From Escherichia coli (lineage in GTDB: Bacteria > Pseudomonadota > Gammaproteobacteria > Enterobacterales > Enterobacteriaceae), in the NCBI RefSeq assembly GCF_003334305.1, contig NZ_QOWS01000003.1: a stretch of DNA of 64,000 bases. One strand, written 5' to 3'. Of this stretch, positions 11,355-22,124 are shown in pieces. Numbering within the stretch: the stretch's first letter is position 1; each line of letters begins with the position of its first letter. The position numbers and the translations under genes are program-made. The notes below the pieces were generated by a model that worked only from the letters and a program-made list of their open reading frames with translations, ran no database searches and had not been told where the DNA came from.

Positions 11355-12113
11355 TCACGCCACCCCAATCTCCATCCCATCAAACCCCACCTCAAACCCT
11401 GACGGTAGTGCGTTTTCCATCAGCCACGCATCAAACTGGTGGCTGATATGGGTCAGAATCACCTGTGGCGAGCGGATAACCTGATTCAGCGCAAGCACGG
11501 TATTTAAATCACAGTGATTACGCGGTGCATCCGCGCGCGGCGGGTGACTGCAATCAATCACCATCACCTGCGGATGATTATTGAGTAAAAATTTCAGCGT
11601 TTTTTCCGGCAGGCCAGCGGTGTCAGACAGCCACGCCACCCGGCTATGTGCCGTTTCCAGCAGATAACCGAAGGTCAGTTTTGAGTGGTTAAGCGGCAGC
11701 GGCGTGACCTGCAACCCCTGCAAATCAAACACCACAAACGGTTCCACTGTGTGGCTGAAATCAAGCAGGCCCGGATGTTTAAACAGATCGTCGCAGCCCT
11801 GTTCATCCGGCGGGCCGTAGACCGGGATCACATCGCCCACGCCCCAGCGTAGCGGAAATAGCCCCTGGACGTGATCCATATGGTAGTGCGTCAGCAAAAA
11901 CTGCTGGAACGATCCAGGCGACCAGCGATCGGTGAGATCGTGCCGCCCGGCGTCGATCAGGGTGATCGCGTCGTTAAACTTCACTACGCCGCTGCATGGC
12001 TGGCGGCGATACTGCGGCGAGCGCCGCGCTCTGGCGCAGGCCGCGCACTCGCAGCCCCATGCCGGAACGCCCTGTGCGCCGCCAGTGCCGGTGAGCGTGA
12101 GGGTCAGGCTCAT
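11355..12113 (-). CDS. phnP: phosphoribosyl 1,2-cyclic phosphate phosphodiesterase (metallo-beta-lactamase fold)
   Basis: 252-aa protein from the internal Met ([15 protein letters not shown]); HYHMDH metal motif; last gene of the phn operon. Confidence 0.92.
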
Positions 12114-12114
12114 G

Positions 12115-12549
12115 TTACAGCGCCTTGGTGAAGCGGAAGTGGCTCTGCTCGTAGCCTTCACGCAGGTAAAAACGGTGTGCGTCGTGGCGCTTCACGTTGG
12201 TGGAAAGCTCGGTCATTTCGGCCCCGGCCTGGCGGGCTTCTTCTTCTGCCCATGCCAGTAATTTACTGCCGACGTTCAGACCGCGCGCCTGCGGCATCAC
12301 CACCAGTTCCTGAATTTCGCCGATCCAGTTGACATGATGCAGATGAAACTGCAAATGCAGGCCGATCATGCCGACAACTTCGCCATCCAGCAGCGCCAGA
12401 TGGTAGCGCATGTTTGGGTCGCGCAGGTTGGCGTTAAAGCCCACGCGAAACGCATGGTGGTCAAACTCCGCCTGTTTTAGCTCACAAATCAGCGCGTAAA
12501 CCGCGTCGGTATCGTACTGCGTGGCCGGGCGAAGCTCACAAGCAGGCAT
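12115..12549 (-). CDS. phnO: aminoalkylphosphonate N-acetyltransferase (GNAT)
   Basis: 144-aa ORF; its stop is 1 nt from the phnP start. Confidence 0.92.
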
Positions 12550-13093
12550 GGTGTTTCTCCTTCTGATGGATCAGCGTCAGCAGCGTGTCGACCGACTGGC
12601 GCAGGCTGCCGTCATTGTTGAGCGTATGGCAATCCTGTGGAGTATAGCGGGCGGCGCGCGCCAGGCGGGCGTTAATTTCACTGGCGTTTTCACGGCCACG
12701 GTTTTCCAGGCGCTGGCGCAGGATCTCCGGCGAAACCTGTAAACAGACGGGCAGCAGCGCCGATTGATAGCGCGCCCGTGCCTGCGGCAAATGCGCGCGT
12801 GAACCGTTGACGACTACGTCGAATCCAGCGTGCAGCCAGAGGTCAATCTCGATGCCGACGCCATAATACAGACCGTTAGCGTGCCAGCTTAAGGCCAGCA
12901 GGTTTTGCCCCGCGCGGGTAAAAAACTCCCGCTCACTCAGGGCGATATGGTTTTCACTTCCGGCGCTGGCGTCGCGCGTGATGTAGCGATGCGCCACCAG
13001 TAACTGCGTTTGTTCCCGCAGGCGGAGTTCCGCCAGCAGGCTGTCTTTCCCGGAGCCGGACGGCCCCATTAACCAAATCAGTTTTCCCATCAT
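12536..13093 (-). CDS. phnN: ribose 1,5-bisphosphate phosphokinase
   Basis: 185-aa ORF with P-loop GPSGSGKDS; overlaps phnO. Confidence 0.92.
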
Positions 13094-14229
13094 CAGAACA
13101 CCCTTTTACCCTGACGCCAGACGTGGTCGATATGAATGTGATTGCCCTGGCGATGCGCCAGCACCAGGTCAGCGCGTTTACCCTCGCCAATCACCCCGCG
13201 ATCCTGAAGATTCAGCGCCTGCGCCGGATTTTTGGTCACCAGCCTCACCGCCTGCGGTAGCGTAAAGCGGTTGCTCTCGTCATCGGCGACGCGGAACGCC
13301 GCATCCAGCAGGCTGGCTGGGTAGTAGTCGGAAGAGAGGATATCCAGCAGACCAAGCTGCGCCAGTTCACTGGCCGCCACATTGCCGGAGTGCGAGCCGC
13401 CACGCACGATATTTGGCGCACCCATCAGCACGTTCATGCCATGCTTACGCGAGGCTTCCGCCGCTTCGAACGTGGTGGGAAATTCGGCGATCACGCTGCC
13501 AAGTTGGTGGGATTCGGCAACGTGGGCGTGCGTGGCGTCATCGTGGCTGGCGAGCGCAATTTGTCGCGCGCGGCACAGGGCGGCGATGGATTCGCGATTC
13601 GGCTGCGACCAGCGTGCGGCGAGCGCCAATTGCTCTTCTTCGTACTGCTGCATCTGCGCATCGGTGAGGGAGTATTTGCCCTGATAATATTCGCGATACT
13701 TCTCGCGGTTAGCGAACTGGCGCTGGCCCGGTGAGTGGTCCATCAGCGACACCAGCGTCACCGGTTCGCGCTGAACCAGTTTTTCAAACAGCGGCAGTGT
13801 GGTGTGATGCGGCAGCTCGCAGCGCAGGTGCAGACGGTGCTCGGCGCGGTTGACGCCGCGTTTCTGCGTCTCTTCGATGGTGTTGATCATCTTCTCCAGA
13901 TTCTCCAGCCGATCGCCGCCGTCGCGCACGTCGCCAATCGCCACCGCGTCCAGCACGGTGGTGATGCCGCTTGCCACCATCAGCGCGTCGTGGCTGCTCA
14001 TCGCCGAATGGGCGGGCCAGTCGACTTTCGGGCGCGGGGTGAAGAATTTATCGAGGTTGTCGGTATGCAGCTCAATCAGGCCGGGTAGTAGCCAGCCACC
14101 TTCGCCGTCCATCGCTTCTGGCAGGCGGCTCTGGCTTTCGGCAAAGGCGCGGATTTCGCCATCCTGCACCTCCAGCGAACCGTGTACCACTTCGTTTTCC
14201 AGCACCAGTTTGACGTTATTGATAATCAT
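13093..14229 (-). CDS. phnM: amidohydrolase-family RPnTP diphosphatase
   Basis: 378-aa ORF; overlaps phnN and phnL. Confidence 0.92.
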
Positions 14230-20233: not shown

Positions 20234-20251
20234 GTTTGGCTCCGTTTAATG

Positions 20252-20294
20252 TTTTCTCCCTCTCCCTCAAGGGAGAGGGGACCGATCGAGCACA
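20252..20294. repeat. copy of GC-rich palindromic repeat (boxC-like) between phnE and phnD
   Basis: TTCTCCCTCTCCCTCAAGGGAGAGGGGACCGATCGAGCACA; its reverse complement matches the 11231-11333 element (GGGAGAGGGAGAAAAC and CGAGCACAATCGGTCCCCTC segments). Confidence 0.5.
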
Positions 20295-21311
20295 TTACTG
20301 CACCGCTTTACTCACCGAACTCATCGCGCTTAACGCGTTGTTCAGGCGGTCCAGGTCATCCAGCTGCGCCTGAATCTCGGTGGTTTTCGCCAGCTTGTCC
20401 TGCTCATTCAGTCCTTTATTGCTTTTTACGCCCTGCATCTCTTTAAACAGTGCGAGCTGGCGAATCGGCACCAGTTGCAGGTCGCTGGAGGCGCGGAACG
20501 GGGCCCAGCCCAGGCGTTCCAGCACCGCTTTCTCTTCCGGCGTTTTTCCGTAGTTCATAAAGAAGTCGTAGATCTTGTCTTTGGTGGTTTCGGAGAGATT
20601 CTTGCGCCAGACGATCGGATCGCCTGGGATCAGCGGCGACTTCCAGATCATCTTCAGTTCTTTCAGCTTCTCTGGCGCGGAGGTTTTCAGCTTGTCGAGG
20701 TTTTCGGTGTTGTTGGTGGCAACATCCACCTGCTTGTTGGCGACGGCCAGCGCGTTGGTTTCATGCCCAGCGTTGACGGTGCGCTTAAAGTCGCTGGCGG
20801 AGATATTGTTTTTGGCAAAGACGTAGTAACCGGGGACGAGGAAGCCAGAGGTGGAGTTAGGATCGCCATTGCCGAAGGTGAGATCTTTCCGCTTCGCCAG
20901 CAGATCGTTCAGGTTGTTGATCGGACTATCTTTGTTGACGATCAACACGCTCCAGTAACCTGGCGATCCATCCGCCGCGACCGTCTGGGCGAAGACCTGG
21001 CCGTTGGCGCGATCCACCGCTTCCATTGCCGACAGGTTGCCGTACCAGGCGATATCCACTTTATTGAAGCGCATTCCCTGGATAATGCCTGCGTAGTCTG
21101 GGGCAAAGAAGGCGTTCACCTTCACGCCCAGCTTCTTCTCCATATCCTGTAAGAATGGCGTCCATTGCGGTTTCAGGTTTTGCTGTGATTCCGTTGAAAT
21201 AATGCCGAAATTCAGCGCCTTTTCCTGCTCTTCGGCGTGTGCCGGGCTTAACAGGGTGCTGAGGCTGAACATGCTGGTGAAGGCCAGCGAGGCAATTATC
21301 TTAGCGTTCAT
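20295..21311 (-). CDS. phnD: phosphonate ABC transporter periplasmic binding protein
   Basis: 338-aa ORF with signal peptide. Confidence 0.92.
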   Translation of the reverse strand: MNAKIIASLAFTSMFSLSTLLSPAHAEEQEKALNFGIISTESQQNLKPQWTPFLQDMEKKLGVKVNAFFAPDYAGIIQGMRFNKVDIAWYGNLSAMEAVDRANGQVFAQTVAADGSPGYWSVLIVNKDSPINNLNDLLAKRKDLTFGNGDPNSTSGFLVPGYYVFAKNNISASDFKRTVNAGHETNALAVANKQVDVATNNTENLDKLKTSAPEKLKELKMIWKSPLIPGDPIVWRKNLSETTKDKIYDFFMNYGKTPEEKAVLERLGWAPFRASSDLQLVPIRQLALFKEMQGVKSNKGLNEQDKLAKTTEIQAQLDDLDRLNNALSAMSSVSKAVQ

Positions 21312-21335
21312 TCGTTTTCCTCAATGATGGGGATG

Positions 21336-22124
21336 TCAGGCAGCTTTCGCGTTCTCTTCGATGCGATTAATGCTGCGGTAGAGATGGTCAAAACGTTCGT
21401 TATCAAACTGTTGGCTGCTGCCGTCGTAGAAAACGTGCCCCTGGCGCAGGGCGACGATGCGTTCGCAGTAGCGCAGGGCGTAATCCACCTGATGCAGCGT
21501 GACGACCACGGTGATGCCGTCGTTCTGATTGATGTCGCGCAGGGTGTCCATCACGATGCGGGCGGATTCCGGGTCCAGCGAGGCGATGGGTTCATCGGCC
21601 AGAATCACCTTCGCCTGCTGCATCAGCGCGCGGGCAATCGCCACACGCTGCTGCTGTCCGCCGGAGAGGGTGGAAACGCGCTGATGGGCAAAATGCACCA
21701 TGCCAACGCGGGTCAGCGCCTGTAACGCGCGCTGTTTCTGCTCGCCGGTGAACCAGCTAAAACAGGTGCGCCAGAACGGCGTGCTGCCGAGCGCGCCAAT
21801 CAGCACGTTCTCCAGTACGCTCAGGCGGTTCACCAGGTTGAATTGTTGGAAGATGTAGCCGGTGTTGGCGCGGCTTTTGCGGATATCGCGCGCCAGACGG
21901 CCTTCGCGCTGGACTGTGCGGCCCAGCAGCTCGATATGGCTGCCGGCGGATTTATCGCCGGTAATCAAACCGCTTAAGTGACGTAAAAGGGTGGATTTGC
22001 CGGAACCCGACGGCCCAAGCAGAGCCACCATTTCACCGTGATGAATGTTCAGATCAACCGCATGCAGCGCCTGATGCTGATTGAAGGTTTTGGCGAGCTT
22101 CTCGACACGGATAATCGTTTGCAT
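21336..22124 (-). CDS. phnC: phosphonate ABC transporter ATPase
   Basis: 262-aa ORF; Walker [10 protein letters not shown]; GGGAGG RBS 7 nt upstream. Confidence 0.93.

Follow-up and report, generated by a model that had tools for sequence, protein, structure and literature searches.

The C-P lyase (phn) operon of Escherichia coli, its overlapping gene junctions and the presence of intercistronic repetitive extragenic palindromic (REP) elements are already known, ordinary textbook features. Termination-reinitiation (TeRe) coupling has been shown by experiment for gene pairs spaced at -4, -1 or -8 nt, and in E. coli the genes for heteromeric complexes show a 4.5-fold enrichment of such short overlaps, with reinitiation falling by 40-80% at a spacing of +14 nt and being almost abolished at +38 nt (PMC10666635). 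For malE-malF, a model has been described in which a REP hairpin protects the upstream segment of the transcript, and differential decay has been found to reshape about 12% of the operons of E. coli (PMC5927463). Under phosphate starvation the phn genes form a single 14-gene transcript, the coverage of which decreases along the operon, a trend that is not resolved further (PMC3734233). Here, these systems are compared with the phnCDEFGHIJKLMNOP operon found on the minus strand at positions 11355-22124 of a 64,000-nt stretch of E. coli DNA (contig NZ_QOWS01000003.1, hereafter the window).

Our best explanation, which is probably right, is that phn is an ordinary Pho-regulated, single-transcript operon made of two blocks of overlapping or abutting genes, (F)GHIJK and LMNO(P). 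Inside a block, a ribosome that terminates on one gene would most likely reinitiate on the next, making the synthesis rates of neighbours proportional, and each gene keeps its own Shine-Dalgarno (SD) sequence besides. The blocks are parted at the phnK/phnL (K/L) junction, where, in E. coli, a mobile palindromic element has landed precisely in the interval from the phnK stop codon to the phnL SD, with a hairpin that possibly favours the upstream segment. The observations beneath this are coordinates, element identities, a comparative pattern and population alleles.

Megablast of 11355-22124 returned matches in 5,426/5,426 complete E. coli genomes, 5,386 of which carry the operon, and 100% identity to strain H15 and others; gene names and coordinates are those of the RefSeq annotation of H15 (window = locus + 8854). 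The 14 genes are co-oriented, in canonical order and have intact coding sequences, all of which, on direct reading, start with ATG, end in a stop codon and contain zero internal stops. Every overlap claim depends on the annotated starts, and these are supported because alignments to NCBIfam models begin at residues 1-7 of the phn proteins, position 1 of the PhnL model falling on residue 1. Eight of ten proteins (PhnG, H, K, L, M, N, O and P) match NCBIfam equivalogs above the curated cutoffs; PhnI and PhnJ, which have no model in that library, are identified by their RefSeq names and by the 77-96% identity of PhnJ to 80 homologues. The operon shares with that of E. coli K-12 its 14 genes, their order, the junction geometry and the 110-nt length of the K/L spacer, and differs in that phnE is intact, whereas in K-12 it is a frameshifted pseudogene (MG1655 annotation). 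The genes are as follows:

phnC, 21336-22124, minus strand: first gene, phosphonate ABC transporter ATPase, ATG to TGA, 262 amino acids
phnD, 20295-21311, minus strand: periplasmic substrate-binding protein
phnE, 19454-20233, minus strand: permease, intact, 259 amino acids
phnF, 18708-19433, minus strand: GntR-type regulator, abutting phnG
phnG, 18255-18707, minus strand
phnH, 17674-18258, minus strand
phnI, 16610-17674, minus strand
phnJ, 15772-16617, minus strand
phnK, 15017-15775, minus strand
phnL, 14226-14906, minus strand
phnM, 13093-14229, minus strand
phnN, 12536-13093, minus strand
phnO, 12115-12549, minus strand
phnP, 11355-12113, minus strand: last gene, weakest SD (-3.2 kcal/mol)

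Junctions were read in the window and compared with those of 80 phn loci of other species, returned by a PhnJ-based scan and belonging to Enterobacterales, Vibrionaceae, Pseudomonas, Halomonadaceae and alphaproteobacteria. Spacing in the window (negative for overlap) is followed, where counted, by the number of species in which the two genes overlap:

C/D: +24 nt
D/E: +61 nt
E/F: +20 nt
F/G: 0 nt, TGAATG
G/H: -4 nt, ATGA at 18258-18255; 46/74 species
H/I: -1 nt, TGATG sharing base 17674; 61/73 species
I/J: -8 nt, ATGGCTAA at 16617-16610; 61/76 species
J/K: -4 nt, ATGA at 15775-15772; 40/79 species
K/L: +110 nt, the REP-containing spacer; 4/76 species, median +22 nt
L/M: -4 nt, ATGA at 14229-14226; 58/72 species
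M/N: -1 nt, TGATG sharing base 13093; 42/69 species
N/O: -14 nt, 12549-12536; 10/11 species
O/P: +1 nt, TAACATG
phnG-phnH-phnI-phnJ-phnK, 15017-18707, minus strand: unbroken overlap chain (-4, -1, -8, -4)
phnL-phnM-phnN-phnO, 12115-14906, minus strand: second overlap chain (-4, -1, -14)

Two chains of overlaps make up the operon, GHIJ(K) and LMN(O); both are conserved, as is the break that parts them, an arrangement that does not simply follow the core complex. A first-pass annotation of the locus had correctly read the ATGA shared at J/K and the overlaps at L/M, G/H and M/N (given as 1-4 nt) and at N/O (14 nt), and the REP element that it placed in the K/L gap proved to be two inverted units, multi-copy and strongly folded. 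Its list of overlaps, real as far as it went, left out the 8 nt at I/J; it also assigned to H/I a shared ATGA that belongs to G/H, H/I being the 1-nt TGATG overlap, and mistook K/L for the only sizeable internal gap, the D/E spacer being 61 nt long with a 9-bp G/C hairpin.

This packing shows the enrichment of short junctions typical of tight operons and is not exceptional. Eight of the 13 junctions (F/G, G/H, H/I, I/J, J/K, L/M, M/N and O/P) lie within -8 to +6 nt; C/D, D/E, E/F and K/L fall outside this range, as does N/O, which at -14 nt is beyond the window of Huber 2023. Among all unidirectional gene pairs in E. coli, 707/2,987 (24%) lie within -8 to +6 nt and 1,630 are more than 20 nt apart (Huber 2023, PMC10666635). 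Against the 24% of all pairs, 8/13 gives P = 0.004; against operon-like baselines of 40-52%, which are assumed or derived from the counts in PMC10666635, P is about 0.10 to 0.34. Distances compatible with coupling thus number 8/13, or 9/13 if N/O is counted.

The overlaps probably serve translational coupling. They resemble characterised TeRe pairs (Huber 2019, 2023) in being of the ATGA, TGATG and ATGNNTAA (-8) types, in having SD motifs inside the preceding gene and, for G, H, I, J and K, in coding for subunits of a heteromeric complex. Overlap geometry in particular supports coupling within G-H-I-J-K, the products of which form the core complex with PhnK. The proposal that the overlaps serve obligate stoichiometric production of the C-P lyase core survives in part: the geometry suits coupling and the G/H, H/I and I/J overlaps are conserved, whereas neither "obligate" nor the restriction to the core can be kept. 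Obligate coupling is not implied, because an SD-like motif precedes each of the 14 genes (-3.2 to -11.6 kcal/mol against the anti-SD, phnC having the strongest at -11.6 and phnP and phnN the weakest). Nor are overlaps specific to the core, because L/M, M/N and N/O overlap too and F/G abuts a regulator gene. We know of no evidence for PhnM, PhnN or PhnO as core-complex subunits; in this the probable coupling in phn would differ from TeRe pairs, joining M/N and N/O, which are not known complex partners, while leaving the partners K and L apart. A double dimer of PhnK and PhnL binds the C-P lyase core (Amstrup 2023, PMC9947105), and as their genes overlap in so few species despite this partnership, stoichiometric partnership does not predict overlap here.

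The break between the two chains is occupied in the window by a bacterial interspersed mosaic element (BIME), and in other E. coli strains by a different palindromic spacer:

K/L spacer, 14907-15016, minus strand: 110 nt, BIME of two inverted REPs, then the phnL SD (GAGG)
REP unit 1, 14977-15016, minus strand: in mRNA sense GCCGGATGCGGCG...CTTATCCGGCCTAC, from a fuzzy consensus search
REP unit 2, 14927-14963, plus strand: inverted; in the transcript it pairs with unit 1
176-nt BoxC-pair K/L spacer, L083:451-626: alternative allele, E. coli strain 2012C-4227

That the K/L spacer is a genuine BIME is clear from several properties. Both REP units fit the consensus (GCCKGATG.. head, CTTATCMGGCCTAC tail) and form an imperfect palindrome under a fuzzy, flexible pattern, and they lie wholly inside the spacer, tail-to-tail and inverted. 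The nucleotide that follows the phnK TGA is already the first of the unit 1 stem, the phnL SD (GAGG) comes after the 3' arm, and the whole folds as one long hairpin (-63.6 kcal/mol, z = -6.3). The sequence is also dispersed at high copy, occurring at at least 31 places per genome in 5,426/5,426 E. coli genomes, a count with a ceiling of 40 pieces per record. Two other readings of the spacer were rejected. As an naRNA4-type small RNA gene it scores 36.4-42.7 bits against Rfam naRNA4 (RF02564, REP325-derived), below the gathering score of 59.5, and is REP-family sequence rather than an naRNA4 locus, unlike the neighbouring yjdN-yjdM REP pair (22765-22842), which exceeds that score at 87.5 bits. 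A longer phnL, starting at TTG 15020 (TTGA over the phnK stop) and in frame through the REP, is countered by the closure of this frame in the 176-nt allele and in three other enterics, and by the NCBIfam PhnL model, which starts at the annotated Met; the open frame is a coincidence.

Within E. coli the K/L junction exists in two structured forms. A 410-nt junction probe was covered over at least 80% of its length in 4,842 genomes (the BIME allele, about 89%), and at the identical site 546/5,426 genomes (about 10%) have the 176-nt spacer without REP. The latter consists of two inverted G/C-rich palindromes folding at -92 kcal/mol, contains an exact match to the BoxC/PIT/TMECO consensus (L083 547-581), and begins its long hairpin about 10 nt past the phnK stop. 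The same 17 nt before the phnL ATG ('...CACGAGGCGAAAA ATG') are kept in both. These 4,842 + 546 = 5,388 alleles compare with 5,386 operon-carrying genomes, essentially all of them, so that no empty K/L allele is evident; at most 38/5,426 genomes could carry anything else.

Beyond E. coli, a 9-nt gap without insert (TAA GAGGCGAAC ATG) is found in Leclercia, Citrobacter sp. FP75, Cedecea neteri and Hafnia. K/L holds one to three REP-like units in Enterobacter asburiae, Pluralibacter, C. werkmanii, Enterobacteriaceae RIT691, Kluyvera and Cedecea sulfonylureivorans, and several Pseudomonas have long GC hairpins there. In E. coli, the insert would have widened the gap from the 9 nt of the REP-less enterics to 110 nt, across which phnL would be expected to initiate independently. 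When spacers of 40-250 nt were compared, counting as strongly structured those with z <= -3 against dinucleotide shuffles (and thus controlled for GC), K/L gave 7/19 and J/K 0/19 (Fisher p = 0.008), and D/E gave 18/39 and C/D 0/25 (p = 3e-5); a 296-nt K/L spacer in one locus (L048), which looks like a mis-called start, falls outside this length range. Structured repeats insert preferentially at K/L and D/E, and K/L is a recurrent landing site for palindromic repeats in many bacteria. At O/P, structured inserts (z about -5) have widened the junction to 94-109 nt in Pluralibacter (L007:~12506-12599) and RIT691 (L009:~12458-12566), from which it follows that other near-abutting junctions can also be colonised.

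The second of these preferred sites, D/E, and the region beyond phnP carry sequences related to the BoxC/PIT/TMECO family of intrastrand-triplex repeats, the motif of which is CCCTCNCCC-N3-6-GGGNGAGGG-N3-GGGNGAGGG (consensus from Holder 2015, PMC4666352):

D/E hairpin, 20258-20279, minus strand: perfect 9-bp G/C hairpin, two-block and BoxC-like, CCCTCTCCC-N4-GGGAGAGGG (TCAA between the blocks on the plus strand)
BoxC/PIT/TMECO element, 11233-11330: past the phnP stop, between convergent phnP and yjdP
full three-block BoxC motif, 11296-11330, plus strand: exact match to the published consensus
two-block BoxC hairpin, 11233-11255: downstream of phnP

No other BoxC-type motifs than those at 11296-11330, 11233-11255 and 20258-20279 were found in the 64-kb window, and an E. 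coli genome holds the family at a median of 15 places. The three-block motif is present at 11296-11330 and in the 176-nt K/L allele, with 0 expected by chance, and these elements resemble described members in their exact consensus, intergenic site and local variability. By comparison, the D/E hairpin has only the first two of the three blocks and is a relative rather than a full member of a family that is itself without established function; its 61-nt spacer folds at -29.3 kcal/mol (z = -3.6), with flanks that align with BoxC elements. The element past phnP may give the operon a structured 3' end, although terminator activity is reported to be absent from PIT elements.

By analogy with malE-malF, the K/L REP could plausibly be a site of differential mRNA stability, with which the repeated occurrence of structured elements at K/L is in keeping. 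In both cases an intercistronic REP pair in a polycistronic mRNA places a stable hairpin 3' of the upstream segment; such a hairpin could block 3'-to-5' exonucleases and so favour phnC-K over phnL-P. The two differ in that protection and unequal protein output were demonstrated for malEFG, whereas the K/L hairpin is known from its sequence. They also differ in position: the site after the binding-protein gene corresponds to D/E in phn, where the hairpin is of BoxC type and not a REP. A stable structure 3' of the favoured segment is present at both K/L and D/E, and, by the same analogy, the D/E hairpin, overlooked at first reading, is plausibly at least as good a candidate as the K/L REP. Neither is terminator-like, because neither hairpin is followed by a T-run; of the 20 intrinsic-terminator hits (12.6 expected), none coincides with K/L or D/E. 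Both the coupling and any effect of the hairpins on mRNA or protein levels are what we infer from this arrangement.

Several points weigh against this account. Coupling may be of little weight, since an SD is present at every phn gene. The species counts ignore phylogenetic non-independence, and starts in the other species were called by homology. BoxC/PIT elements reportedly act neither as promoters nor as terminators (PMC4666352). The one per-gene dataset located, from a W3110 derivative, has phnK and phnL moving together (10.15 vs 11.41, and 0.28 vs 0.16; PMC10080781), figures that are relative changes and cannot reveal a constant phnK:phnL ratio; in the same data phnC and phnD behave unlike phnF-N, but expression data downstream of phnD from K-12 derivatives are confounded because phnE is a pseudogene in K-12. 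RNA-seq sub-transcripts breaking near K/L (Li 2013 supplements) also count here, being low-expression, coverage-limited assemblies.

For the K/L insert, the strongest rival explanation, with a probability approaching but not reaching evens, is that the REP or BoxC pair is a neutral passenger, selfish or passively acquired DNA at the sole permissive junction of the catabolic block, with no selected regulatory effect. Every other junction from G to O overlaps or abuts, so that K/L alone spares coding sequence; Leclercia and the other enterics with a 9-nt gap manage without an insert; and in E. coli the site is held by either of two unrelated elements. The reported hypervariability of TMECO neighbourhoods (PMC4666352) and the parallel changes in phnK and phnL transcripts point the same way. 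Chance residence sits less well with the absence of strong structure from J/K spacers of similar length, with the very few E. coli genomes that could have neither structured allele, and with the preservation of the SD-proximal 17 nt in both alleles.

A more doubtful but still credible alternative, a specific form of the stability site suggested at first reading, is that structure after phnK has been kept by selection, raising PhnGHIJK relative to PhnL-P through protection from 3' exonucleases and the uncoupling of phnL. Structured K/L inserts are recurrent and apparently independent in enterics and Pseudomonas, and in E. coli, with no detectable empty allele, one palindromic element has given way to another at least as stable (-63.6 and -92 kcal/mol). 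The malEFG precedent, the share of operons reshaped by differential decay and the decreasing coverage along phn are in keeping with this. Many species, on the other hand, have a short unstructured K/L gap, the PhnK-PhnL double dimer argues against a need for unequal K:L, and the counts of structured spacers are not phylogenetically independent.

It is unlikely that the REP instead acts to reduce PhnK, the terminating ribosome having to melt its stem. REPs within about 15 nt of a stop codon reportedly cause stalling, trans-translation and reduced output from the gene upstream, and the stem at K/L, starting at nucleotide +1 after the TGA, would be inside the ribosome footprint. The hairpin of the BoxC allele begins further from the stop, and the property is not obviously shared between the two alleles.

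Independent transcription of phnL-P or phnG-P from a promoter of its own, which would make the overlaps irrelevant to expression ratios, is highly improbable: phnLMNOP and phnGHIJK units do occur in low-expression RNA-seq assemblies, but one 14-gene transcript was assembled under phosphate starvation (PMC3734233), the reported phnLMNOP 5' end lies inside phnL and looks like a coverage artefact, and a scan for internal sigma-70 promoters gave hits at background (4 vs 3.1 expected), with none on the coding strand at a junction, K/L and F/G included.

Some further features of the locus were recorded. Upstream of phnC, no match to the strict Pho-box consensus was found with up to 3 mismatches, and a putative Pho-box region was picked out by eye:

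putative Pho-box region, 22191-22230, minus strand: four 7-nt units at 11-nt spacing (CTGTCAT / TTCCCGT / TCTTCAT / TAGTCAC)

An antisense transcript of 481 nt (U00096.2 4315582-4316062; Li 2013 supplements) corresponds to about 14570-15050 (plus strand) of the window, spanning the REP spacer together with the 5' part of phnL and the 3' end of phnK, and a weak sigma-70-like site lies near it at 14431-14460 (plus strand). The REP content of the yjdN-yjdM spacer, upstream of phn, differs between strains, this spacer being 160 nt here and 657 nt in K-12. With the flexible REP pattern, REP-like units were also seen elsewhere in the window, at 28479-28510, 41275-41304 and 41338-41373.

Co-directional genes are most often spaced by short overlaps, and as first written the finding matters little. 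What the present analysis adds is modest and comparative: two conserved blocks, the break at K/L, the sites of structured repeats, and two alternative elements in E. coli. The structured pattern at K/L and D/E and the BIME/BoxC allelic alternative are minor points, of which no description was found in the literature searched. Rather speculatively, K/L may be a conserved, uncoupled "punctuation mark", at which selection recruits whatever palindromic repeats are available (REP/BIME, BoxC, Pseudomonas REPs) and so sets the ratio of PhnGHIJK to PhnL-P, the D/E hairpin doing likewise for binding protein and permease. If hairpins do set expression ratios, phn, with its BIME allele, its BoxC allele and its REP-less relatives, would offer a natural system in which to distinguish the domestication of REPs from their tolerance.

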